Numbered from the stretch's first letter, positions 8,975-22,943 are shown. The stretch: DNA of 24,000 nucleotides from Sphingobium sp. SCG-1 (GCF_002953135.1 NZ_CP026373.1:155795-179794); one strand, 5' to 3'. Numbers and translations: made by a program. The notes: generated by a model not told the origin, from the letters alone.

Positions 8975-9973
8975 CTACAGAAACTGCGCCCCGGCATGAT
9001 CGTCGAACAGTTCGGCGCTGCGGACATATTCCGAGAGCACCTGCACCGACTTGTGGCGGCTGACGTCCTGCATCTTGAAGATGCTCGCCCGGTTGGCAGC
9101 CGCCTCGGTGAGGAATCCGGCGCGCAGCGAGTGGCCCGCATAGTGCGCCGGGTCGTAGCCGGCGGCGGCGGCGCAGCGCTGGACCAGGCGCGCGATGGCG
9201 CGGTCCGACATGCGATCGTCGGTGAGCTCATCGCGGCGAGAGAGCCGCCGGAAGAGGGGTCCCTCGGCATGGCCGGCCGCCGCCATCCAGGCTAGGAGCA
9301 ACGCCTTGGGACGAATCCGCTTGCCCTCCGGAATGGCGACGATAACGCCCTCGCGGGTCTGGTCGGTCTTCGACTTGGCGATCATCAACTCGATGCCTTT
9401 GTCGACGAGCCCGACGTCGGGCACATCGAACGCAACGAGTTCGGACCGGCGCAGCGCGGCCGACATGCCGATCGCGAGGAGCGCGCGGTCGCGCACCGCG
9501 CGCAGGCCATCGCCTTGGATCGTCTCGAGCATATGGCGTAGCGCGGCAGCGTCGGCGGCGCGCTTGCGGACCTTGGGCTTGCCGTGGGTCGCGCGGATGC
9601 CGGCGAGCACCTCGAGCAGCCGGCCGGAGCCGGGCACGGTGTTCGGCGGCGCATGACCGGCTTGGCGGTGATAATAGGCGATCGCCGAGATCCGCTTGCC
9701 GATGGTACGAGGGTTGGTGCCGGCATCGGCATCGGCGCTGGCGAACACCGCGACCGCATCGGGGCTCGCGGGCATTGCCTGGATGCCGTGCTGCTGACAC
9801 CAGGCGGTGAAGATCTTCCAGTCGGCCTCATAGGCGCGCCGGGTCGATGACGCCCGCGAGGCTTTGGCGTAGTCGGCGGCGCGCGCGATCTGCGCGTGGA
9901 GGATGTCGGGCAGCGCGGGCTGCTCGGCCACCACCGGCAACAGCCGCGACGGGTCCATGTCATCACTCATCAC
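8975..9973 (-). CDS. Cre-like tyrosine recombinase / site-specific integrase
   Basis: The N-domain (STRRAYEADWKIFTAWCQQHGIQAMPASPDAVAVF..TIGKRISAIAYYH) and the catalytic domain (ALRRSEL.., GHSLRAGFLTEAA.., SRHKSVQVLSEYVR) follow the Cre/P1-type layout, with the R..HxxR..H..Y residues present. The start is GTG 9973 or ATG 9970. Confidence 0.9.
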   Translation of the reverse strand: MMSDDMDPSRLLPVVAEQPALPDILHAQIARAADYAKASRASSTRRAYEADWKIFTAWCQQHGIQAMPASPDAVAVFASADADAGTNPRTIGKRISAIAYYHRQAGHAPPNTVPGSGRLLEVLAGIRATHGKPKVRKRAADAAALRHMLETIQGDGLRAVRDRALLAIGMSAALRRSELVAFDVPDVGLVDKGIELMIAKSKTDQTREGVIVAIPEGKRIRPKALLLAWMAAAGHAEGPLFRRLSRRDELTDDRMSDRAIARLVQRCAAAAGYDPAHYAGHSLRAGFLTEAAANRASIFKMQDVSRHKSVQVLSEYVRSAELFDDHAGAQFL

Positions 9974-10010
9974 GCGATCCTAACGCACCCCCTTCCGCGC
10001 ATCAATCTAC

Positions 10011-10036
10011 TGTCCGAGAATCACACTTCTCGGACA
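10011..10036. repeat. perfect 10-6-10 palindrome, candidate recombinase core site or operator
   Basis: TGTCCGAGAA (10011-10020), spacer TCACAC, then TTCTCGGACA (10027-10036). It sits 38 nt upstream of the recombinase start, at the point where G+C drops. Confidence 0.6.
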
Positions 10037-10192
10037 CAAGTTGCGATATCAGGAGTGTTAACGAACTCATTTTCAGGCGAGCAGAACCGTTTACGAAGCA
10101 TCCGAACCCCCCAGTCGGAACCAGCTGGTTGGACAACACCGATCGGTTCAGCTGGCGCAGTCGCCTGGCAGCCATAGCATCGCGCGAATCGG

Positions 10193-11080
10193 CTAGTGTG
10201 CAGAGTGTTTCCGGGCGACGACATTCAGTTCCTCGTTCTCGATGAAGTTCAGCATTTGCGGCACCATTTTCGGAAACGTTCTGTGCGGAGTGGCCGAACT
10301 GCAGTACGTGACGCTTTTGCCTGCGGCGCATCCCTTGAAGGATCGGCACCCGGACACCAGAGAATGATCTGGGATTGGCGTGCACCTGGCGCAGTTTGCC
10401 CACCAGGCGGCGGTCCCGCTCCCAAAGTCGGGGAACAGCTCGTCGGCAGGGTTGTGGATGATCAAAACAGCCGGGATGCCGGGACATTTGGCACCTTGAA
10501 GATCGTCTTCTGCAATTCCAGCGGCGGTCGCGACAACCGCACGCACTGGCAATTGCTTAGTTGCAAATATGGGAATGCCTTCAGCCATGGACCCACCGTC
10601 GGAATGACCGAGATAAGCGATCGCTCTTTGGTCGACACAATATCCTTGTTCTATCGTTGACGCCACAGCCGATTGGAGTTCGAGCGCGCGGCGCGAAAGA
10701 CTAACATGATCACTATAGGCCACGATGTTGCCGCGCCGGGTTGCCTCCGTGGTGAGATTGTAGAATGATTCTGATCGATGCCTGTCAAAGCCTGCCGGAG
10801 CAAATATGACGAGCAGTGGATAGGCCGTGGTGGCGTTATAATTATGTGGCGTTCGAACCCAGATCCGCAGCCCCGAGCTCGTCCTCAGCTCGTCGCCTAA
10901 ATCGATGTGTCCGCGACGACTTCCAGTAGCGCACGCCTCATTCAATCCAACAGCACGTGGCGCATCAGCCGTTGGCTGAATGGCGGGTTGGTACAGAAAT
11001 TGCGCAAGAATGCCGACTGCAATCGCCCCGGCAATCGCCGCAAAGCCGAGCTTTCCTCCAACCCGCGATACTTCATTCAC
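10193..11080 (-). CDS. membrane-anchored alpha/beta-hydrolase, PHB-depolymerase/LpqC-like esterase family
   Basis: There is an N-terminal hydrophobic anchor (FAAIAGAIAVGILAQFL). The core pattern is PLLVIFAPAG.., with nucleophile elbow GHSDGG and later IIHNPADELFP. The family call is from general pattern only. Confidence 0.6.
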   Translation of the reverse strand: MNEVSRVGGKLGFAAIAGAIAVGILAQFLYQPAIQPTADAPRAVGLNEACATGSRRGHIDLGDELRTSSGLRIWVRTPHNYNATTAYPLLVIFAPAGFDRHRSESFYNLTTEATRRGNIVAYSDHVSLSRRALELQSAVASTIEQGYCVDQRAIAYLGHSDGGSMAEGIPIFATKQLPVRAVVATAAGIAEDDLQGAKCPGIPAVLIIHNPADELFPDFGSGTAAWWANCARCTPIPDHSLVSGCRSFKGCAAGKSVTYCSSATPHRTFPKMVPQMLNFIENEELNVVARKHSAH

Positions 11081-11471: not shown

Positions 11472-12419
11472 CTAACGGTTGTCGACGCGTGGAAGCATCC
11501 TCGCCTCCGTTATCGCGAATAGATGCGATATCGATCGCTGAAGTTCGTAACGCGTGGCCTTGAGGTCGGCGAAGCGCGCAGGTATCTCGATGTTACCGGC
11601 CTCGACAGGGTCCAAGCCGCTCGCTACCGCCGTCTCGATCGCTGTCTGCAGCCAGGCGAGCCAGTCCTTGGTCTGGTCGATTGCAGTGGAAGCGGTTGGG
11701 TCGAAAGGGCCATGACCGGGCACAACGGAACGGTGCCCAAGCGACTTGAGCGTATCGAGCGTCGCTTGCCATCGACTCAGGTCCGCGTTGGGCGTGCTAG
11801 GCGCGCGATCGTGAAAGACAAGGTCGCCCGCGATGAGCGTTGAAGTCGTTTCGTCGAAATAAGCAACATCTGCCGCGCTGTGGCCGTTTAACGGAAGAAT
11901 GCGAATGCGACGATCACCAAAGTCCTCCACATCGGATGAGATGATATGGCCTGGTAAAACCAGTTCTGTGCCGCGCATCCAGTCACCGAGGATACGATAC
12001 ATTCCATCGGAATAGACCCTGCCCTCACTCGTAAGGTCGCTATTTAGTTCGGGCGTGGCCGCCACGAGCGACTTGTCGAATGCGCCATCACCGTAGCTAT
12101 GGTCAGGATGCAGATGGGTAAGAAAAACCCGAATGATTGGCATGCCCGTCAATCGTTCAGCCAGAGCCTTGAGCGCCGTGCCATAGCGTAGGGACGGCCC
12201 GCAATCGAACAGGACGGTGCCTTTGGGAGTCGCCAGAATAGTGATATTTGCGATTGCCCCGCCATTGGAACGAGCTATCGGCTCGTCCGCGCCGCGGACT
12301 ATCCAGAGCCCGTCACCGATTGAAACTGGCGTGATCGTATATTGAAGCGACTGTGCCCATGCCGCGCCGGCCACCGGCAAAGCCACCGTGGCGACCAATA
12401 GATCGCGCCGACTGATCAC
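11472..12419 (-). CDS. MBL-fold zinc hydrolase, quinoprotein relay system metallohydrolase type
   Basis: A Tat-like signal is present (ISRRDLLVATVALPVAGAAWA), with the H-x-H-x-D-H motif (THLHPDHSYG) and a later GHGP. The GTG start overlaps the stop of the upstream SoxYZ-like gene (GTGA at 12416-12419). Confidence 0.8.
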   Translation of the reverse strand: MISRRDLLVATVALPVAGAAWAQSLQYTITPVSIGDGLWIVRGADEPIARSNGGAIANITILATPKGTVLFDCGPSLRYGTALKALAERLTGMPIIRVFLTHLHPDHSYGDGAFDKSLVAATPELNSDLTSEGRVYSDGMYRILGDWMRGTELVLPGHIISSDVEDFGDRRIRILPLNGHSAADVAYFDETTSTLIAGDLVFHDRAPSTPNADLSRWQATLDTLKSLGHRSVVPGHGPFDPTASTAIDQTKDWLAWLQTAIETAVASGLDPVEAGNIEIPARFADLKATRYELQRSISHLFAITEARMLPRVDNR

Positions 12420-13234
12420 TTCAAGGCAGAGGCCAAGCCAACCGGACGATCCATAATAGCCAGCGTCGCATCATAGTCGATCCCATTGGTGTCGCGACCG
12501 GTGACCAGAAGCTTCGCGCTTTTGGAAGGAGCGACAATTACCGTAATCACTGGATCTTCGGCAACGGATGCCTCTATAGCGAGGCTCCCGAATATCTTTC
12601 CATCCGCGTCGGTCAGCGCCAAACTTTCGAGATGGTAAGTCGGAATATTCGCGACAAAACCGGTATCCATCGGATGACGCATGGCGAGACGAACGCGATC
12701 GCCGCCCTCGGTGTGCCAAGCACCGCCGCGGATTTCGCCAAGATGCTGTGACCAATCGCCCCGTGCACGGCTCAGCGGTGGCATCGAACATCCGCCACCC
12801 GCTGCATCCACCCACGCACCACTTACGAGCCAGGAACCATCCTTCAGTTGCACTGCGCCACGTACCGGGGTTCGCTGATCCAGTTTGATGTTGGTCGCGA
12901 GATAGGGCGCGGCGTCGGCCAGGACATAGTCGATGGCCAGCGGTATCGGATTGAGATCTGCAAAAATGAGGATGCGCTTAACGCCACTAATTGTTCGCGC
13001 GTCCACAGCTACAGGGAAGCTGCGCTGGTTCTCGGCGATCTGCGGCATGATCACGCGTACGCGCGGGTCGAAGCGAACGTCGCTGTCTCCGAAAAAGGTT
13101 TCACCTAGCGCCTTCCAGACAGGCGACTGGAGCGGATCGGCTGGAACTTCTGCGACAGCGGGACTGCTGCAGATGAACAGCGCAATAGCCGCCACGCCCA
13201 GACGCTTGGTCGGGTTGCTGTGATTCTTTCCCAT
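12416..13234 (-). CDS. quinoprotein dehydrogenase-associated SoxYZ-like carrier (SoxY-like plus SoxZ-like fusion)
   Basis: A signal peptide follows ATG 13234 (MGKNHSNPTKRLGVAAIALFICSSPAVA). The SoxY-like half ends in the carrier-type motif AAGGGCS, and the SoxZ-like half follows (RVRLAMRHPMDTGF..HLESLALTD). The track start 13264 is less likely. Confidence 0.8.
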   Translation of the reverse strand: MGKNHSNPTKRLGVAAIALFICSSPAVAEVPADPLQSPVWKALGETFFGDSDVRFDPRVRVIMPQIAENQRSFPVAVDARTISGVKRILIFADLNPIPLAIDYVLADAAPYLATNIKLDQRTPVRGAVQLKDGSWLVSGAWVDAAGGGCSMPPLSRARGDWSQHLGEIRGGAWHTEGGDRVRLAMRHPMDTGFVANIPTYHLESLALTDADGKIFGSLAIEASVAEDPVITVIVAPSKSAKLLVTGRDTNGIDYDATLAIMDRPVGLASALK

Positions 13235-13304
13235 AGCTCCAAAGTAGAATGGTCCAGCCGGCATTCCAATGGTACTTTAGGCTGATGCGGCGGAAAGGTA
13301 ATTG

Positions 13305-13841
13305 ATGCTAACTCTTGTCTTGGGCGCGGCCGTTGCAGTGGCAGGGATGCCCCTCACGGACGGTCGAGACTTCGATGCTGTTTCCGGTTATCGGATCGCG
13401 CATTATCGGTCAGTGGTCCCTTTCCCGCCCGAAGGGGTACGAAAGATCGAGGTCCAGGAGGCGCTCGAACTGCTTCGTCGGCAAGGCGCGTTGTTCGTAG
13501 ATGTAACGCCGGCGCAGGGAGGCCGTCGTGACGCGCTGACAGGCCATTGGGCCCTGGCTGAGACACATGAAACGATTCCAGGAGCCCGCTGGTTTCCGGA
13601 CGCCGGGCGGGGACAGTTGGAGCCAGTTGCCGAAGCATGGTTTCTCGGCGGCATGGCTCGCCTGTTACGAGGCTCCGTTCGGCCGATTGTTGTGTTTTGC
13701 CTTGCCGATTGCTGGATGAGTTGGAACGCCTCAATGCGACTGCGACGGGCCGGATACCGAGATGTGCGCTGGTTCGCCGACGGGGTGGACGGTTGGCGAG
13801 AAAAGGGCCTGATGCTCGTAAATAGATATCCGGAAAATTAA
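13305..13841 (+). CDS. rhodanese-like, PQQ-dependent catabolism-associated CXXCW-motif protein family
   Basis: The C-terminal string VVFCLADCWMSWNASMRLRRAGYRDVRWFADGVDGWREKGL matches my memory of this family's Cys-..-Cys-Trp-Met-Ser region. GGAAAGG lies 6 nt upstream of ATG 13305. The gene is divergent from the SoxYZ-like gene. Confidence 0.72.
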   Translation: MLTLVLGAAVAVAGMPLTDGRDFDAVSGYRIAHYRSVVPFPPEGVRKIEVQEALELLRRQGALFVDVTPAQGGRRDALTGHWALAETHETIPGARWFPDAGRGQLEPVAEAWFLGGMARLLRGSVRPIVVFCLADCWMSWNASMRLRRAGYRDVRWFADGVDGWREKGLMLVNRYPEN

Positions 13842-13980: not shown

Positions 13981-14010
13981 TGGCACATTAGACTAAAGTG
14001 CCATCGACAG
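13981..14010 (+). promoter_or_regulatory. conserved box A (shared with 22914-22943), includes dyad TGGCAC-N11-GTGCCA
   Basis: GCACA-TTAGAC-TAAA-GTG-C-CATCGACAG here aligns with GCACA-TA-TTAGAC-CTTA-GTG-T-CATCGACAG upstream of the CoA-transferase gene. That is 24 of 28 aligned positions identical with one 2-nt indel. Confidence 0.45.
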
Positions 14011-14234: not shown

Positions 14235-14314
14235 TGTCTCACGGCAGTCAACCGGACTGCATCGGGTAATTAGGTCTAAGCAGCCGACCGTAAAAAGATG
14301 GAAGGAGTAGAGTG

Positions 14315-15106
14315 ATGGCAACAGTTGCAAATGCGACTCCGCTTGGGAGACCAAGCGATGATCGGAAGATTGTGAATTTTAAGATCCCCGCAATAGCCAC
14401 GGTAGGCCTTTTGGCGATCATGGTTTTCTACAGAACCTTTCAAAGGATGTTCGCCTGGACTGCGGGGCTCGATTCCACGGATCCGGTTTTCGACACTTAC
14501 TGGATGGGTCTACTCAAAGCTGAACTGGTATTAATTCCATTGCTCTGGGTTGGCGTGTGGTCTTACATTTGGTTCACGCGAGACAAAAACCTGTATTCAA
14601 TTACGCCTCGAGAGGAACTTCGCAGGTACTTTAATCTGGTTTTGTTCATTTTCGTTTACGCAGTTGCTGTCTGGTTTGCAGCGAGCTTTTTCGCGGAGCA
14701 AGATGCATCTTGGCACCAGACTGTCGTTCGCGACACCAGCTTCACACCGAGCCATGTGGTGCTCTTCTACGGCACCATGCCTTTGTACGTGACGTTCGGC
14801 GTCGGCTCTTTGCTTTACGCAACGACCCGTCTGCCAAAATATGCAGACAATATTTCGATTCCGCTGGTTCTAGCGGTGGCTGGTCCATTCATGATTCTCC
14901 CGAACCTGGGCTTCAATGAATGGGGCCACGCCTTCTGGATGATGGAAGAGGTGTTCACGGCGCCGCTGCACTGGGGCTTCGTTGTCATGGGCTGGACAGT
15001 CTTGGCTCTAGGTGGTCTGCTGCTGCAGATCGCGCAGCATATGATCACCCTTCTCAGGCAGATGGGCGAACTTGCCGAAAGCGAGGGTGAGGTCATCGCG
15101 GGCTAG
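14315..15106 (+). CDS. pmoC: copper membrane monooxygenase subunit C (PmoC/AmoC family)
   Basis: EQDASWHQTVVRDTSFTPSH gives D-x3-H-x12-H. NEWGHAFWMMEEVFTAPLHW gives N-x3-H-x13-H. There are multiple TM helices, and a GGAAGGAG SD lies upstream of ATG 14315 (a GTG at 14312 is also possible). Confidence 0.93.
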   Translation: MATVANATPLGRPSDDRKIVNFKIPAIATVGLLAIMVFYRTFQRMFAWTAGLDSTDPVFDTYWMGLLKAELVLIPLLWVGVWSYIWFTRDKNLYSITPREELRRYFNLVLFIFVYAVAVWFAASFFAEQDASWHQTVVRDTSFTPSHVVLFYGTMPLYVTFGVGSLLYATTRLPKYADNISIPLVLAVAGPFMILPNLGFNEWGHAFWMMEEVFTAPLHWGFVVMGWTVLALGGLLLQIAQHMITLLRQMGELAESEGEVIAG

Positions 15107-15114
15107 TTCAGGAT

Positions 15115-15149
15115 TATTGCGCGAGATCGGCTCGGTGTCGGTTTCGCGC
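15115..15149 (+). other. intercistronic stem-loop between subunit C and A genes
   Basis: TTGCGCGA (15115-15122) and TCGCGCAA (15142-15149) are exact complements with a 19-nt loop. An A-rich tract follows and there is no U-tract. Confidence 0.4.
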
Positions 15150-15221
15150 AAAACGAAAAACAACGGTTACAGGGGGCGCGCATGCGCTTGGCATTTCGTC
15201 GCCGGAAGCATGGAGAGTAAG

Positions 15222-16076
15222 ATGAGAGACAATCCAGGACAAACAATTTATGGAATAAAGTGGTCGAAGGAAGGGGCAAAGCTATCGCGGACCTTCGACA
15301 TCATCGTCGCGGTGATCCTGTTGCTGGCGGTCGCCGGCGCGACTCATCTTCACTTCATGCTACTTGCGGGCGATTGGGACTTTTGGGTCGATTGGAAAGA
15401 CCGGGAATTCTGGGTGACGTTGACGCCGATTGTGGCGATCATGTTTCCAGCGGCCTTGCAGTATATGTTCTGGAAATATTTTCGTCTCCCGATTGCCGCA
15501 ACGCTGGCAATTGTGGGCCTGATGATCGGCGAGTGGCTCAACCGCTATTACGGCTTCCATCTGTGGTCCTATTTCCCAATGAGCATGGTGTGGCCCGCAA
15601 TGCTACTGCCGAGCGCACTAGCTCTGGATGCCATTCTCTTGCTCACCGGCAATTTCCTGTTGACTGCGATATTCGGCGGAATGGCGTTTTCTCTGCTGTT
15701 CTACCCTTCGAACTGGTTCATGTTGGCCCCATACAGATTGCCCGTGCAGATCATGGATTATCTTGCATCTGTGGGTGACGTGATGGGTTACTCGTTCACG
15801 CGAACGGCAACTCCAGAATATCTTCGGATGATCGAACGCGGCACGTTAAGGACATTCGGTGGACACTCCGCGACGGTGTCGGCCTTTTTTAGCGGCTTTG
15901 TATGCATATTAACATATATGGTCTGGTGGGGCTTTGGCGTCCTTTTCTCGCGCGTGATCACCGTCCCGAATACGTTCAAGAAGCTCCTTGGCCTGGTTCC
16001 AAAGGCAGCCGGAACGTCGACGCAGCAAGGGGGCAAGGATACTAAGCTTACAACAAGCACCGTGGGGGGGGTTTGA
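15222..16076 (+). CDS. pmoA: copper membrane monooxygenase subunit A (PmoA/AmoA family)
   Basis: Hallmark strings are HLHFMLLAGDWDFWVDWKDREFWVT, IGEWLNRYYGF, LLFYPSNW and TPEYLRMIERGTLRTFGGH. ATG 15222 has GGAG 6 nt upstream (ATG 15210 is also possible). The track ORF start 15072 overlaps subunit C and is not family-like. Confidence 0.93.
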   Translation: MRDNPGQTIYGIKWSKEGAKLSRTFDIIVAVILLLAVAGATHLHFMLLAGDWDFWVDWKDREFWVTLTPIVAIMFPAALQYMFWKYFRLPIAATLAIVGLMIGEWLNRYYGFHLWSYFPMSMVWPAMLLPSALALDAILLLTGNFLLTAIFGGMAFSLLFYPSNWFMLAPYRLPVQIMDYLASVGDVMGYSFTRTATPEYLRMIERGTLRTFGGHSATVSAFFSGFVCILTYMVWWGFGVLFSRVITVPNTFKKLLGLVPKAAGTSTQQGGKDTKLTTSTVGGV

Positions 16077-16080
16077 GAAC

Positions 16081-17367
16081 ATGCAGCTAATAATAGGGAA
16101 AACACGCAACATCTTCCGGCGCTTGACGGCAGCTTTGCTGCTGATCGTCAGCCTTGCCGGAGCTGGTTTGTCATCGCCGGCTTTTGCCCATGGTGAGCGC
16201 AATCAGGAACCCTTTTTAAGGCTCCGTACCGCTCACTTCTACGATGTAAAATGGAGTTCCAAATCGGTCCCAGTGAACGGTAGTATAATCATAACTGGCC
16301 GGTTTAGACTCTTTAAAGAATGGCCAGCCAACCTTCCCAAGCCAGACGTTGCATTTTTGGGCAATGGTACGCCAGGACCAGTCTTCGTGAGGACGGAAAG
16401 CTATATCAACGGGGTTCCGGCAATCCAATCTGCGCCGCTGGAGCTCGACCGAGATTATGCTTTCAAATTTGTGCTAAAGGCACGAATTCCTGGCCGTCAC
16501 CACGTCCACCCTATGATCAACGCCCAAGAAGCGGGGCCGCTACTCGGCCCGGGGGAATGGGTGACAGTGACAGGTTCCCATGCCGACTTCAAATTGCCTG
16601 TTCGGACGATCAACGGAACCTTCATTCCCAATTTGGAGACGTGGGGACTTGATCGCGTTTACTTGTGGAACGGCCTGTGGTTCGCCATTGCTATTGGATG
16701 GCTACTCTTCTGGCTGCGGCGCCCACTCCTCATCACCCGCTACTTGGCGGTGACCGAAGGCAAGGAAGAGGCTCTGATCTCGAACAAGGACCGCGTTGTC
16801 GGAGCAATCCTGCTAGCATCGACCATCGTGATCGTCTTCGTTGGATATGTCGTCACTGACAACGCCTTCCCGCGCACAATTCCTTTGCAAGGCGGTCGAG
16901 CGAGCGTCGAACCTTTGCCGTTCACCCCCGGTGCAGTGAAGGTGTATGTTACCAAGTCGACTTATGATGTGCCTGGCCGCTCCCTAAAAATTGAGATGAA
17001 TCTCACCAATGAGGGGCCAGCGCCAGTCCAACTGGGTGAATTCCTCACGTCGAATCTCCGGTTTATCAACGCGAGCGTTCCAGCAGCAGTAAAGGGTCTG
17101 GATCCAAACTATCCGCGCGATGTCGTGCCGGTAAATGGTCTAAAAGTTAGTGACAACCGGCCTATCGCCCCGGGCGAAACGCGCAAAATTGCTGTTGCGG
17201 CGACAGACGTAGCTTGGGAAAAAGAAAGACTGACGAGCTTGTTGAACGATCCTGACAACCTGGTGGGGGGACTCTTGTTCTTCTTCGATGCGGCCGGGAA
17301 TCGATCAATCAGCAACGTGTCTGGGCCTATGGTACCAGTCTTTACGGCAGAAACGGTGAAAGGCTGA
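16081..17367 (+). CDS. pmoB: copper membrane monooxygenase subunit B (PmoB/AmoB family)
   Basis: The signal peptide ends ..SSPAFA, and the mature end is HGERNQEPFLRLRTAHFYDVKW. The H-x-H string is GRHHVHPMINAQEAGPLLGPGEWVTVTG. There are two central TM helices and a C-terminal beta-rich domain. ATG 16081 lies 4 nt after the subunit A stop. Confidence 0.93.
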   Translation: MQLIIGKTRNIFRRLTAALLLIVSLAGAGLSSPAFAHGERNQEPFLRLRTAHFYDVKWSSKSVPVNGSIIITGRFRLFKEWPANLPKPDVAFLGNGTPGPVFVRTESYINGVPAIQSAPLELDRDYAFKFVLKARIPGRHHVHPMINAQEAGPLLGPGEWVTVTGSHADFKLPVRTINGTFIPNLETWGLDRVYLWNGLWFAIAIGWLLFWLRRPLLITRYLAVTEGKEEALISNKDRVVGAILLASTIVIVFVGYVVTDNAFPRTIPLQGGRASVEPLPFTPGAVKVYVTKSTYDVPGRSLKIEMNLTNEGPAPVQLGEFLTSNLRFINASVPAAVKGLDPNYPRDVVPVNGLKVSDNRPIAPGETRKIAVAATDVAWEKERLTSLLNDPDNLVGGLLFFFDAAGNRSISNVSGPMVPVFTAETVKG

Positions 17368-17427: not shown

Positions 17428-17466
17428 GACGATGACATTGTAATCGTAGGATTTGGAGAGTTGATC

Positions 17467-18048
17467 ATGAGGCTGACTGGTCGTCGAGGAGTCGCCGCAT
17501 ATTGTTTAATCATTTTTTGCGCGCCGACATCTGCTCATGCTCACGGCGGCCTGACGATGGAGAAAGACGTCTGCAAGCTTCAGGTCGGCCAGTATCAAAT
17601 GCATTTCAACGGGTATCAGCCCGACAGCCAGGGTGCCGAGCAGTTCTGCGAAGATATTCCGAGTACCGGCAGAACCGTAATCGTTCTCGATTTCATTGAC
17701 GATAATCTGCGCAAGCTTCCGATCGATGTGAGGGTGGTCAAAGCGTCTGGTTCGGAGGCGGATCTTGCGAAGGCCACAGTCTTTCATGTCGAGCCGCGGG
17801 TCTATCCGACAGGATCACTTTCATTTTCGTATGATTTCAAGGAGGGGGGGAATTTTATCGGGCTGGTTTCCGCAGGTGGTGACACCGCGCATGTGGCACG
17901 ATTCCCGTTCGCTGTCGGCAGCATGTGGCTGCACTGGAGAAAACCTCTCGGACTCCTGGCGATCATGCTCCTCGCGGTCGGCGGACTGTTCGGATACTCT
18001 ACGCTCAAAAGACCGGCCAAACGAAGCAGCGCGCAACGCCGTGTATAG
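17467..18048 (+). CDS. secreted, C-terminally membrane-anchored protein in the PmoD/AmoD position (family unconfirmed)
   Basis: GGAGAG lies 6 nt upstream of ATG 17467. The signal peptide ends ..APTSAHA, followed by HGGLTMEKDVCKLQVGQYQMHFNGYQ, a ~140-aa soluble part, then a TM helix (LGLLAIMLLAVGGLFGY) and a basic tail. Confidence 0.75.
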   Translation: MRLTGRRGVAAYCLIIFCAPTSAHAHGGLTMEKDVCKLQVGQYQMHFNGYQPDSQGAEQFCEDIPSTGRTVIVLDFIDDNLRKLPIDVRVVKASGSEADLAKATVFHVEPRVYPTGSLSFSYDFKEGGNFIGLVSAGGDTAHVARFPFAVGSMWLHWRKPLGLLAIMLLAVGGLFGYSTLKRPAKRSSAQRRV

Positions 18049-18095
18049 GACACTGGCGGTAACATCAGCGCGCCGGATGATTTTCCCACGAGAAA

Positions 18096-18470
18096 GTGAT
18101 CAAGAAAATGCGAATATCGACCCTTTCGCTGGTGTGCATCGCCTGCATTCCATCTCCGCTTTTTGCGCATGCCGCGTTGGTTAAGTCAGTGCCGGGCAGT
18201 CGCGCCGTGATCGACAAGATGCCGCCACAGGTGGAACTGTGCTTCAATGAGGAAGTCGACCTCAAATTTTCGACATTTTCGATTAGCGACACGGCGGGCA
18301 AACATGCGCCGCTTGGACCTATAAAACTCGGTCGCGACGCGCGGTGCCTATCTGCCAAGAGCGGAGCTCTCGCCAAAGGCACCTATCAGCTTAACTATCA
18401 TGTACTCTCGAAGGATGGTCATATTGTTAAGTATGGACTGCAATTCACCATTCGTGCGGATTCCAAATAA
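18096..18470 (+). CDS. copC: periplasmic copper-binding protein CopC
   Basis: The signal peptide ends ..SPLFA, and the mature end is HAALVKSVPG. The family end-string GTYQLNYHVLSKDGHIVKYGLQFTI is present. The start is GTG 18096 or ATG 18108. Confidence 0.9.
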   Translation: MIKKMRISTLSLVCIACIPSPLFAHAALVKSVPGSRAVIDKMPPQVELCFNEEVDLKFSTFSISDTAGKHAPLGPIKLGRDARCLSAKSGALAKGTYQLNYHVLSKDGHIVKYGLQFTIRADSK

Positions 18471-18472
18471 CA

Positions 18473-20476
18473 GTGAATGAGTTGCTGTCAGCGTCCACGA
18501 CGGCAATTATCAACGCTACTTTGGCCTGGTTGATCGGAGCCTCGCTTTTCAGTCTGTCGACGGCGCATCTTTCAAACGCGGTTCTCTGGAACTGGCGAAA
18601 GAAGATGCGTTTGGGGACAATGGTCGCGGCGCTCATTTTACCGGTTGCTCTGGTTCTCAACCTGGCAGCGCGGTCGGCTTCCGCTAATGATGTCCATCTT
18701 TGGGCCATCATGACGGATCCCAAGCTGGTGCTGGAATTCGCCGCTGGAAGCTCGTCCGGTCAGGTGGTCTACATTCGCTTGCTTATGGCGTGTTTCGGAG
18801 CGGTTTGCCTCGGAGGTGCTTGGTTTTGGGACCGATCTGCGCCGTGGCGCCTGACCCATATCATTGCGCTTGCCGTCGGCGTTATCTCTGGCGTCATCGG
18901 ACCGCTCGGGGGCCATGTCGCCGGCGATGAGGCTACCCGATGGTTGGTGCCGATCCATATTGCCCATATCCTTGCAATGGCCACATGGCTCGGGGGGCTG
19001 CCTGGCTGGGTAGGCCTGGTCATCTGCACGAGCCAAACCCCATCATCGCCATTGCAAAGAGATGTGCTTGCAGCATTACGCAGCTTCTCCAAGCTGGCTA
19101 CAGCTTGCATGGCTATTATTATTACGTCAGGCGTGGCGCTGGCCAGCGCCTGGATCAAGTCACAGGGGGACTTGATCGGGACGACGTACGGCTGGCTTCT
19201 ATGCGCCAAAATATGCATTTTGATGGCTGTTTTGCTGTTGGCGAACCGGGTTCGCAAGCGACTGCTATCTGGCCACAATCGCCAGGGCCACAAACTCGGG
19301 CTGGGCGTTCCCGTCGCGCGCTGGGTGGTCGCGGAACTCGCGCTTGGCGGCGTGATTTTAGGATTGGCAGGAACACTCGCGCAGACGACTCCCGCGGTGC
19401 ATGATCAGCCGGTCTGGATCCTTCCTTTCAGGATCGCGCTTTCAGCAACATGGCCCGTATGGCCGACAATGTGGGTCTTTCCGATCGCGACCGGGGTCGC
19501 CTGTCTTTCGCTTCTGACCGGTTTCGCGCGCTGGGCGTCACTCTCCCGAGCCCGGCGCGCGCTCCTGGCGGCTGCGGGACTGTTAGCAGCCGGAGTTGCC
19601 GCCTGGGCCGCTAGCGTGCCGGCTTACCCAGAGACCTATCGGCGATCGACGTCGCCATATCTCACAGTCTCCATCGCGCAGGGCGCCAAGAATTACCGAG
19701 AAAATTGCACCGCTTGTCACGGACCCGGTGGACAAGGCGACGGGCCGCTTGCCAAATCGCTGCCCAAGCCACCGGCGAATCTCTCCCAACCCCACACAGC
19801 GCTACACACGGGCGGCGACCTCTATTGGTGGATCAAAAATGGCATTCCGGAAAGCGGTATGCCGCCATTCGGTGATATGTTTGATGAGCAGAGCATTTGG
19901 GACACTGCAAATTTCCTTCGGGTTTTTTCCCAAGGGTTTGAAGCCAGGGTGCTCTCGCCGCTGATCGCGCCAAACGGCCCCTGGCTCGGCGCACCGGACT
20001 TCTATTTTGAGCGATCCGATGGCTCGCCAGGCGAGCTGAAAGACTTTCGACACGCCGCAAACGTGCTGATCGCCGTATTTCCGGCTGCCTCCGGGTCGAC
20101 CTCGGCGCGCGTGAAGCAGCTTGTAATGGCCCAGCGCACATTGGCGGCGTCAGGGATTCAACTGATCCTCGTTACGCCGCACAAATTGCCGAATCTCCCT
20201 AACACGATTGTTCAAGTTAACGATGACGCCGCGCAGGTGATCGAGAGCTACGCATTCCTGTCGCGCACTCTAGCCAACAAAGGCCGCAGCAATGAACTCA
20301 ACATGAGCCGCAGCTATGTCGAGTTCCTCATCGATCGTTTCGGCTTCGTCCGCGGACGCTGGATACCCGAAGAAGATCGCGACGGTTGGCAGAATCTTGT
20401 GAAACTGAAGCAAATATCAAAGACGCTTTTCGACGAACCGGAGATACGCGGATCGCCGGATGCCCATATTCATTGA
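18473..20476 (+). CDS. copD: CopD-family membrane protein fused to a class I cytochrome c domain and a Cys-less thioredoxin/redoxin-like domain
   Basis: The N-terminal ~390 aa are polytopic and CopD-like (..HIAHILAMATWLGGLPGW..). The heme motif CTACH is encoded at 19706-19720, with a likely axial Met in GMPPF (ATG 19859-19861). The C-terminal ~165 aa follow a redoxin pattern (APDFYFERSDGSPGELKDF..VLIAVFPAASGST..EFLIDRFGFVRGRW), with the CxxC position replaced by AASG. The GTG start lies 2 nt after the copC stop and is uncertain. Confidence 0.85.
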   Translation: MNELLSASTTAIINATLAWLIGASLFSLSTAHLSNAVLWNWRKKMRLGTMVAALILPVALVLNLAARSASANDVHLWAIMTDPKLVLEFAAGSSSGQVVYIRLLMACFGAVCLGGAWFWDRSAPWRLTHIIALAVGVISGVIGPLGGHVAGDEATRWLVPIHIAHILAMATWLGGLPGWVGLVICTSQTPSSPLQRDVLAALRSFSKLATACMAIIITSGVALASAWIKSQGDLIGTTYGWLLCAKICILMAVLLLANRVRKRLLSGHNRQGHKLGLGVPVARWVVAELALGGVILGLAGTLAQTTPAVHDQPVWILPFRIALSATWPVWPTMWVFPIATGVACLSLLTGFARWASLSRARRALLAAAGLLAAGVAAWAASVPAYPETYRRSTSPYLTVSIAQGAKNYRENCTACHGPGGQGDGPLAKSLPKPPANLSQPHTALHTGGDLYWWIKNGIPESGMPPFGDMFDEQSIWDTANFLRVFSQGFEARVLSPLIAPNGPWLGAPDFYFERSDGSPGELKDFRHAANVLIAVFPAASGSTSARVKQLVMAQRTLAASGIQLILVTPHKLPNLPNTIVQVNDDAAQVIESYAFLSRTLANKGRSNELNMSRSYVEFLIDRFGFVRGRWIPEEDRDGWQNLVKLKQISKTLFDEPEIRGSPDAHIH

Positions 20477-20487
20477 GCGAGGAAGCT

Positions 20488-21012
20488 ATGTGGAAATCAA
20501 CTGTACTTGTTTTGCCTCTCATGATCGCAAGTTGCTCGGGAGGAGCCCAAAAGACTCCAGATGCCCCAAAGGAAGCGCACTCCGAGCACAACATGGCAGC
20601 GATGCCGGGCATGGGAAACATGAGCGATCCAGGACACGATATGTCTTCGATGGACGACGCAAAGCCGGTGGCTTCAACCGATACACCCCCACTAAAAATT
20701 GTCGGCCCCATTGATGGCGCGACGATTGGGCAGCGCGTGGCCGTTGTTTTTGAGGGACCCGCTCAGCTTTCCAAATATACGATGGATAATCCTGAGGCGG
20801 CAGCTCACCTGCACATTGCGCTCGACGATACTGAGCTTATGCCGATGGGCGAGCAGTTGATCAGCTTGGGCGCCAAGCAATATGTTTTCATATTCGATTT
20901 ACCAACAAAACCGGGACGTCACACGATAAGTCTCTATTGGGCCGATCGGCTTCACAAGAAGATTGAAAATGGTGTCCAGACTATATCTGTAGAAGTGACC
21001 GGTTCCAAGTAA
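20488..21012 (+). CDS. lipoprotein with Met/His-rich copper-type motif and a DUF4399-like beta domain
   Basis: GAGGAAG SD then ATG 20488. The lipobox is LMIASC. The metal-type stretch is HSEHNMAAMPGMGNMSDPGHDMSSMDD. A ~115-aa domain follows with AAHLHIALDD and GRHTISLYW, which resembles what I recall of DUF4399. The track start 20386 overlaps copD. Confidence 0.8.
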   Translation: MWKSTVLVLPLMIASCSGGAQKTPDAPKEAHSEHNMAAMPGMGNMSDPGHDMSSMDDAKPVASTDTPPLKIVGPIDGATIGQRVAVVFEGPAQLSKYTMDNPEAAAHLHIALDDTELMPMGEQLISLGAKQYVFIFDLPTKPGRHTISLYWADRLHKKIENGVQTISVEVTGSK

Positions 21013-22913: not shown

Positions 22914-22943
22914 GCACATATTAGACCTTAGTGTCATCGACAG
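22914..22943 (+). promoter_or_regulatory. conserved box B (partner of 13981-14010)
   Basis: GCACATATTAGACCTTAGTGTCATCGACAG, 139 nt upstream of ATG 23082. See box A for the alignment. Confidence 0.45.

Follow-up and report, generated by a model that had tools for sequence, protein, structure and literature searches.

The stretch of DNA analyzed here, 24,000 nucleotides from Sphingobium sp. SCG-1 (C2:155795–179794 of a two-contig genome; hereafter the window, whose positions 1–24,000 are used as coordinates), contains at 11472–13841 three genes of the quinoprotein relay families, located beside the operon of a copper membrane monooxygenase (CuMMO). The trio probably constitutes the relay set for a PedH-like alcohol dehydrogenase (ADH) dependent on pyrroloquinoline quinone (PQQ), which is encoded elsewhere on the same plasmid in a split ped-type cluster, the whole forming an island for the conversion of alkanes to acids. 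The three genes are as follows:

11472–12419, minus strand: quinoprotein relay system zinc metallohydrolase 1, a SoxH-like protein of the metallo-β-lactamase (MBL) fold exported by the twin-arginine (Tat) route (TIGR04558)
12416–13234, minus strand (longest open reading frame to 13264): fused SoxY–SoxZ-like carrier with a single Cys (TIGR04557)
13302–13841, plus strand, the strand of xmoCAB: PQQ-catabolism-associated 'CXXCW' rhodanese-like protein (TIGR03865)

All three proteins belong to the families in which an earlier note, made from the sequence alone, had placed them, each of them scoring above the curated cut-off of its NCBIfam profile. The hydrolase reaches 337.0 bits with TIGR04558 (cut-off 300) and 160 bits with the type 2 model TIGR04559 (cut-off 280), so that type 1 fits better; the carrier reaches 184.7 bits with TIGR04557 (cut-off 140), with model positions 1–225 of 226 aligned; and the rhodanese-like protein reaches 157.9 bits with TIGR03865 (cut-off 128.05). 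The Pfam assignments agree with these families, the carrier matching SoxY at 91.6 bits and SoxZ at 23.6 bits, slightly below the cut-off of 25. The start of the carrier is more likely Met11, at 13234, because its database copy (P0001) has 272 residues and a GGAG element precedes that ATG. On the minus strand, nucleotides 12419–12416 read GTGA, the GTG start of the hydrolase overlapping the TGA stop of the carrier, and to judge from this overlap the two genes are translationally coupled. The overlap, the divergent transcription of the rhodanese-like gene, and the Tat signal and motifs HLHPDH, AAGGGCS, and FCLADCWMSWN had all been described in the earlier note and were all found again.

Export signals are predicted from the sequence on all three proteins, that of the hydrolase (N terminus MISRRDLL) being a twin-arginine signal of the Tat type. 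SoxH, too, is an MBL protein that reaches the periplasm by Tat export. The hydrolase contains the THLHPDH motif, and its residues His102, His104, Asp106, His107, His180, Asp199, and His236 are invariant across 61 homologues; the metal site (HxHxDH/H/D/H), predicted to be the binuclear site of an MBL protein, is thus complete at the level of sequence. The AlphaFold model is a confident MBL fold (pLDDT, the predicted local distance difference test, of 92.5), and the nearest proteins in sequence or fold are an uncharacterized MBL protein from Burkholderia (8D2Z), chlorothalonil dehalogenase, and class B β-lactamases. In the carrier, the motif DAAGGGCS holds the sole cysteine of the mature protein in 120 of 120 homologues, and this cysteine, Cys159 when numbered along the 282-residue reading frame, is aligned to the carrier Cys at the C terminus of SoxY (4UWQ_B). 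The motif of the rhodanese-like protein, FCLADCWMSWN, is kept as FC..(D/N)CW.(S/G)WNA in 32 variants; its actual spacing is C-x3-C-W, not CxxCW, in all relatives examined, and its first Cys falls at the position of the catalytic Cys when aligned with the sulfur transferase Sud (1QXN).

The Sox system (4UWQ, 2OX5) shares with the trio the SoxY fold and a GGC carrier Cys at the same position. However, SoxY and SoxZ are fused here and the Cys lies in an internal loop rather than on a free C-terminal arm, the carrier scores 60 bits with the true SoxY model (cut-off 125) and 21 bits with that of SoxZ (cut-off 76), and no genes for SoxAX, SoxB, or SoxCD are found near the trio. The statement in the earlier note that the biochemical role of the three families is uncharacterized still holds, a review calling their function untested (PMC12997753).

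In a profile search of the genome, no match to the PQQ dehydrogenase model TIGR03075 was found in the window or within 10 kb of the trio, in agreement with what the earlier note had seen. That note had also considered that the cognate enzyme might lie elsewhere, and such an enzyme is indeed present. The genome contains at least seven genes for PQQ-dependent dehydrogenases and encodes five full-length members of the methanol/ethanol family, the top-scoring of which (C2:200437–202179, 786 bits) is located on the same plasmid, 30.8 kb from the stop codon of the CXXCW gene (cxxcw). The nearest solved structure to it is the lanthanide enzyme PedH (6ZCW, 907 bits, compared to 726 bits for the calcium enzyme ExaA), and it carries a vicinal Cys pair (PCCDVVNRG) and the sequence WDFDG, as in PedH, where ExaA has WDFSG; by these residues it is a PedH-type PQQ alcohol dehydrogenase with a lanthanide signature. 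Its cluster comprises a pseudoazurin, an ExaC-type aldehyde dehydrogenase (941 bits, cut-off 900), a FIST sensor with a hybrid histidine kinase, a LuxR-type regulator, a binding protein, a YVTN propeller (TIGR03866, 408 bits), a TonB receptor, and an acetyl-CoA synthetase (Acs). Profile searches of the genome found one copy each of the hydrolase, carrier, and CXXCW genes, and the PedH-like cluster has no relay set of its own.

Another of the five, a chromosomal XoxF-like enzyme in the region C1:449134–460692, has a CC pair and the D-x-D sequence (DHD), whereas the remaining three are type II quinohemoproteins without the Cys pair. The XoxF-like locus has its own (second) YVTN and binding-protein genes and no relay trio, and is flanked by genes for a glutathione-dependent formaldehyde dehydrogenase and S-formylglutathione hydrolase and by a cytochrome oxidase operon. 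The genome search proposed in the earlier note, which yielded these dehydrogenases, gave an unforeseen result for the cofactor, as the whole genome (rated 100% complete) has no pqqC and no pqqE above cut-off. The organism most likely depends on external PQQ, as far as gene content can tell. The genus appears to rely on it as well, since pqqC is found in none of 18 genus genomes sampled and in none of 12 from the order; the same search, run as a positive control on 80 other genomes from the class, detected pqqC in 15.

The layout of the trio, with hydrolase and carrier on one strand and CXXCW divergent, is the same in 19 other loci of the genus, most of which have a PedH-like gene (80–89% identical to that of the plasmid), a YVTN gene, or ExaC within ~10 kb. 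The canonical order is PQQ-ADH, binding protein, (cytochrome c), YVTN, TonB receptor, Acs, hydrolase, and carrier, followed by the divergent CXXCW, pseudoazurin, and ExaC, the trio and all parts of the cluster forming one block of 10–20 kb. Among 163 species genomes of the genus (carriers counted above the cut-off, PedH-like genes at ≥79% identity), the carrier is present in 56 and the PedH-like gene in 62; both occur together in 55 genomes, the carrier without the PedH-like gene in one, and the PedH-like gene without the carrier in seven. A CuMMO is found in this genome only (1 of 163, and 1 of the 56 that bear the trio).

C2 carries every part of the canonical cluster, but with the trio set apart from the remainder. 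Identity to the canonical copies is similar for the trio (51–70%) and for the other accessory proteins (48–61%), and the trio and the PedH cluster need not differ in origin. A ped-type alcohol-oxidation cluster spanning 167–209 kb of C2 would have been split, with the CuMMO module between CXXCW and pseudoazurin/ExaC. This interval contains xmoCAB-pmoD-copC-copD, the gene of a 208-residue protein, an acyl-CoA dehydrogenase, a CoA-transferase, an IS66 element, ompW-ethD, and a TonB receptor/PepSY operon. The genes that adjoin the trio in the window, and do not belong to the relay, are as follows:

14312–17367, plus strand: xmoC-xmoA-xmoB, the only CuMMO of the genome, above the cut-offs of the AmoC, AmoA, and AmoB_BACT models
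17461–21012, plus strand: PmoD-like protein, CopC, CopD–cytochrome c, and a 208-residue protein, the copper-handling tail of the CuMMO operon
10193–11080, minus strand: exported α/β-hydrolase resembling polyhydroxybutyrate (PHB) depolymerase, adjoining the MBL hydrolase gene

The client of the trio would be the lanthanide-type PedH-like enzyme with its vicinal Cys pair, and perhaps also the chromosomal XoxF-like enzyme. In the pathway envisaged, an alkane would be converted to an alcohol by the CuMMO or by one of the three di-iron monooxygenases of C2, the PedH-like ADH would oxidize the alcohol to an aldehyde in the periplasm, perhaps passing electrons to pseudoazurin, ExaC would convert the aldehyde to an acid, and the acid would be activated to acyl-CoA by Acs or the CoA-transferase. 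The earlier note had offered, as the first of two alternatives, that the dehydrogenase lies elsewhere and performs the second step of an alkane-to-acid route, and both the PedH cluster on C2 and the canonical linkage of the trio support it. We can speculate that the rhodanese-like protein acts on the carrier Cys by making, moving, or resolving an adduct or mixed disulfide, which the hydrolase would then release or resolve, and that this thiol chemistry may maintain the Cys–Cys ring in the ADH or clear PQQ of adducts. The same hypotheses of ADH maintenance have been proposed in the review cited above (PMC12997753).

The ped cluster of Pseudomonas putida KT2440 includes proteins of the same three NCBIfam families, all exported (PP_2666, with a rhodanese domain; PP_2677, the SoxYZ-like carrier; and PP_2678, the SoxH-like hydrolase), and resembles the cluster on C2 also in its PedH-type lanthanide enzyme with vicinal Cys, YVTN propeller, binding protein, aldehyde dehydrogenase, and LuxR-type regulators. 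Unlike in KT2440, the trio in Sphingobium is 30.8 kb away from the dehydrogenase and has a CuMMO operon beside it, the cluster contains a pseudoazurin, no cytochrome c550 gene being seen there, and the organism has no PQQ biosynthesis genes (pqqC/pqqE). Methanotrophs pair their particulate methane monooxygenase with a PQQ methanol dehydrogenase (MxaF/XoxF), the alcohol produced by the monooxygenase being oxidized in the periplasm. The presence of a CuMMO and a PQQ dehydrogenase on one plasmid resembles that pairing, although the CuMMO is of the hydrocarbon type and the dehydrogenase is an ethanol-type PedH homologue rather than MxaF/XoxF. In Methylorubrum extorquens AM1, a homologous trio (META1p1703–1705) is located near xoxFGJ, which encodes a lanthanide PQQ dehydrogenase, and a role in maturation or redox control has been proposed (PMC12997753); as described there, and unlike the genes discussed here, a thioredoxin-like gene is co-transcribed with that set, which has no linkage to a monooxygenase. 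A new finding here is that the ped-type cluster is split and has a CuMMO module inserted between the pieces, an arrangement that is conserved in a small island clade of sphingomonads.

The four carriers closest to that of the window (81–85% identical) form one clade. The arrangement of the window, with the trio beside xmoCAB, is repeated in three metagenome contigs that represent two further lineages (L153, L151, and L171). XmoC of L153 is 98% identical to that of the window and XmoCAB of L151 and L171 are 92% identical, whereas the trio proteins of these contigs are merely 70–88% identical. Two other members of the clade, the plasmid of Sphingobium sp. RAC03 and contig L152, have no xmoCAB, yet retain an xmoC-type box ~145 nt past cxxcw; in RAC03, a Tn3 transposase and a resolvase fill exactly the interval from xmoC to copD, and in L152 cxxcw abuts the final 50 codons of a CoA-transferase gene. 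Because of the retained box, the position of Tn3, and the CoA-transferase remnant, both can be regarded as derivatives from which the CuMMO was deleted, and the trio is intact in both. The RAC03 plasmid also has a PedH-like gene, 94% identical to that of C2 and 17 kb from its trio. The trio proteins of the window and of RAC03 are 70–79% identical, with synonymous sites saturated. In L171, a GroEL-like gene cut by the contig end (L171:14241–15785) follows the island and hints at an adjoining di-iron monooxygenase cluster.

The box just mentioned is a 28-nt element with the consensus GCGCATnrGACTwAAGTGCCATCGACAG, which occurs in five copies, on the plasmid only (C2:169057, 169777, 178710, 186237, and 186513). 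Three of the copies are located in the window:

13263–13290, minus strand: variant island box CCGCATCAGCCTAAAGTACCATTGGAAT, within the 70-nt soxYZ/cxxcw intergenic region and facing soxYZ (the carrier gene)
13983–14010, plus strand: island box GCACATTAGACTAAAGTGCCATCGACAG upstream of xmoC, 142 nt past the cxxcw stop (39 bits)
22916–22943, plus strand: island box upstream of the CoA-transferase gene (34–39 bits; also a match to the pattern)

The degenerate core CYWWAGTRYCATYG is found three times in the window, with 0.01 occurrences expected, five times on the plasmid, and not at all on the 4.28-Mb chromosome. With a position matrix, the five sites score 27–39 bits, the next best position of the genome scoring 18.4 bits. 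Each box is located upstream of an operon and faces it, these operons being soxYZ-hydrolase, xmoCAB, the CoA-transferase gene, ompW-ethD, and TonB receptor/PepSY. The boxes are found at orthologous places in L151, L152, L153, and RAC03, and the xmoC box is conserved in L153 and L154. A search with the 28-mer allowing up to six substitutions gave only two sites, and the soxYZ site emerged from a comparison of 11-mers between intergenic regions. Aligned manually with the xmoC box, it is identical at 18 of 25 positions; when the soxYZ sites are kept out of the matrix training, it scores 16.6 bits, rank 8 among ~9 million genome positions, and is not separated from the background. Sites of 15–20 bits are nevertheless present in six of six contigs of the island clade, while the 26 canonical trio loci score at most 13 bits. 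A reading of the box as a sigma-54 promoter was ruled out, as neither the spacing nor the GC at –12 fits. Co-transcription of cxxcw with xmoC was judged unlikely, the first 120 nt past the cxxcw stop being unconserved and followed by the conserved box and a TTGACA-like hexamer. No regulator for the box was found; the gene at the hyp207 position is not conserved on this plasmid.

In canonical loci, the soxYZ/cxxcw intergenic region contains a different element, the ped-type motif ATTGSVCYTTGG, which in the present genome is found upstream of ExaC and of the YVTN gene. Described as ATTG(G/C)(A/C/G)C(C/T)TTGG, it occurs at C2:191317 and 203627 and in L137, L133, L141, L144, L155, and L157, recurring in sphingomonads upstream of ExaC, YVTN, PQQ-ADH, and the canonical soxYZ/cxxcw, and it is likely to be the site for the LuxR-type regulator of the cluster. 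The ped-type motif upstream of soxYZ-hydrolase appears to have been replaced by a variant of the xmoCAB box, which would lead to co-induction with the monooxygenase; on this comparison of motifs, the island trio has probably been rewired from the ped regulon to the CuMMO regulon.

Relay genes were searched for by iterated profiles in 80 related CuMMO loci with flanks of up to 10 kb. A search of the same loci by tblastn with the window proteins was too insensitive, missing a TIGR04557 carrier of 226 bits. The survey of other CuMMO loci suggested in the earlier note found relay genes in just two of the 80, leaving 78 without, so that these genes do not rank with pmoD, copC, and copD as conserved accessories of CuMMO operons. 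One case, in a metagenome genome (L044), is a fusion of 459 residues directly after xmoCAB, in which a CuMMO-linked esterase is joined to a CXXCW domain (159 bits), with a YVTN gene and Acs following it; this fusion is a singleton among 5.8 billion proteins. The other (L037:13960–20746), which has a near-twin locus in another genome (L164:6304–13246), both genomes being alphaproteobacterial ones from metagenomes, is an operon that encodes a DUF2946-like protein, a 323-residue protein, CopC, CopD, a TIGR04559 hydrolase (404 bits), and the TIGR04557 carrier (226 bits), and which is convergent with xmoCAB-pmoD. No PQQ dehydrogenase is found across ~39 kb of these loci. A gene for a 175-residue protein and a TetR gene follow the operon, and a MEDS-domain regulator also adjoins it. 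The other new features of the present data are a box shared with the CuMMO operon and the occurrence, in two CuMMO lineages independently, of relay genes within copper or CuMMO operons. Among five genomes with related CuMMOs, all five have the carrier somewhere, and in three it lies beside a PQQ dehydrogenase on another contig.

A sample of 36 metagenome carrier loci of at least 6 kb, gathered with three type-2 carriers as the query, has a PQQ dehydrogenase in 16 and a CuMMO or CopCD in none. Of the 12 loci with full length (20 kb, with 10-kb flanks), five have no PQQ dehydrogenase within 10 kb, so a window without a dehydrogenase is not rare for the family. Pairs of type-2 hydrolase and carrier, often accompanied by a TetR gene, are found in L174, L175, L179, L181, L186, L187, L193, L194, and L250, and in this clade of orphan pairs the flanks of up to 10 kb contain neither a PQQ dehydrogenase nor a CuMMO or CopCD.

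Several observations weigh against the assignment of the trio to the PedH-like enzyme. The trio is not essential for such an enzyme, since seven genomes of the genus have it without a carrier. The PedH cluster has none of the island boxes when searched with the position matrix, which places the trio and its proposed client under different controls. The rewiring itself may be over-read, because the soxYZ box is weak and matches the ped motif at 10 of 17 positions, in the opposite orientation. The comparison of the hydrolase in structure and sequence yields no clue to its substrate, the nearest solved relatives being functionally uninformative. Finally, in the two other CuMMO lineages described above, relay genes belong to CuMMO or copper operons and lack a PQQ dehydrogenase in their vicinity.

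An adjacency without functional or regulatory meaning, produced when a CuMMO module landed in a ped-type cluster of a mosaic plasmid, with the likeness of the soxYZ element to the CuMMO box a remnant of the related ped motif, is unlikely. IS66, IS110, IS21, and Tn3 elements abound on the plasmid, its gene order varies between relatives, the soxYZ site scores no better than the top of the genome background, and a ped-type site reaches 15.7 bits with the box matrix, all of which such an origin would accommodate. However, the element is present in every contig of the island clade and absent from the 26 canonical loci, it is oriented to its operon like the four strong sites, and the linkage has outlasted the divergence of the trio to ~70–75% protein identity.

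It is improbable that the relay is not specific to PQQ enzymes, being instead a thiol-based periplasmic system of maturation or protection that was recruited also to copper enzymes and is needed for full activity of the CuMMO or for its coupling to the ADH. Such a reading would have the relay wired at least three times into CuMMO or copper operons of hydrocarbon-oxidizing bacteria (the sphingomonad island with its shared box, the copC-copD-hydrolase-carrier operon, and the esterase–CXXCW fusion).

Quite improbable is a role of the relay in guarding the periplasm at large from reactive sulfur species or other nucleophiles or electrophiles, in which it would protect PQQ and copper centers and have no specific client. 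The toolkit of sulfur oxidation (SoxY, SoxZ, SoxH, and rhodanese) is the source of all three proteins, relay genes have PQQ enzymes as neighbors in most lineages and copper enzymes in a few, and the five full-length metagenome loci without a PQQ dehydrogenase agree with such a role; thiosulfate, moreover, inhibits the growth of Hyphomicrobium on methanol, and protection of PQQ from sulfur nucleophiles has been hypothesized (PMC12997753). On the other hand, a general guard does not need the co-occurrence of the carrier with the PedH-like gene in 55 of 56 genomes, the trio has no linked genes for sulfur metabolism here, and RB-TnSeq (sequencing of transposon insertions that bear random barcodes) in P. 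putida revealed minimal phenotypes only (PMC12997753).

The second alternative of the earlier note, that the relay serves the CuMMO itself or its copper supply (through reduction of Cys residues in PmoD/CopC, or through transfer of reducing equivalents or copper), with the linkage to PQQ enzymes secondary, is very improbable and lacks support as a general rule, though it may hold in this lineage: for all that speaks for it, namely the adjacency of trio and xmoCAB in the window and three contigs (three lineages) despite the unequal divergence of their proteins, the box variant common to soxYZ, xmoCAB, and the TonB receptor/PepSY operon, the L037/L164 operon, the L044 fusion, and the carrier in all five genomes with related CuMMOs, it conflicts with 55 trio-bearing genomes of the genus in which a CuMMO is absent, with the scarcity of relay genes at CuMMO loci even by profile, with metagenome carrier loci that include PQQ dehydrogenases and never a CuMMO or CopCD, with the singleton status of the fusion, with the intact trio in both derivatives that lost the CuMMO, and with the carriers placed beside PQQ dehydrogenases on other contigs of CuMMO genomes.

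Although it occurs widely, has names in databases, and is treated in reviews, the relay trio is uncharacterized, and the present plasmid could serve as an exceptionally clean test bed for it, with one copy of the trio and, on the same replicon, a single CuMMO and a single PedH-type dehydrogenase. In natural relatives the trio was kept when the CuMMO was lost, and the host most likely does not synthesize PQQ, which would allow external control of the cofactor. If the trio is co-induced with the monooxygenase, a pathway for short-chain alkanes would have been built by insertion of a CuMMO into an alcohol-oxidation cluster, with its helper genes re-used; if the copper enzyme needs the trio, the reading of the whole gene family would change.

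As for the other genes of the window, the CuMMO belongs by its sequence to the hydrocarbon-type branch. XmoA is 55–70% identical to sequences of uncultured Gamma-, Beta-, and Alphaproteobacteria and 46–53% identical to methanotroph sequences, which mostly have the pxm-type A-B-C order. In the copper-handling tail of its operon (17461–21012), CopD and cytochrome c were identified by Pfam and CopC by tblastn, and L151 has the identical gene order. The α/β-hydrolase at 10193–11080 has a GHSDG elbow and no match in Pfam or NCBIfam. Homologues with 31–38% identity were found by tblastn downstream of xmoB in L019–L035 and L043 (~20 relatives), and the gene looks like an unrecognized CuMMO-associated one; in L044, its homologue is the esterase part of the fusion with a CXXCW domain. 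Members of its family in Methylomonas, Methylobacter, Nitrospira, and Cycloclasticus symbionts are called PHB depolymerase by the sources.

C2 is 236,976 bp long, and its ends (C2:1–18421 and 218563–236976) share 99.95% identity over 18.4 kb; because both ends of the contig repeat each other, it can be taken as a circular replicon of ~218.6 kb with an untrimmed overlap, and the genes within that overlap are therefore counted twice. Three clusters of soluble di-iron monooxygenases, with α and β subunits of the Phenol_Hydrox type, are located on it at 103–105 kb, 119–122 kb, and 217–219 kb, so that C2, with its single-copy CuMMO, carries four hydrocarbon monooxygenases. The nearest public plasmid is pBSY17_2 of Sphingobium sp. 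RAC03. At the left junction of the island, beside a recombinase gene, window positions 9935–10039 match part of the RAC03 plasmid (L018:8145–8250) with 82.6% identity, at a distance of 5.7 kb from the RAC03 trio.

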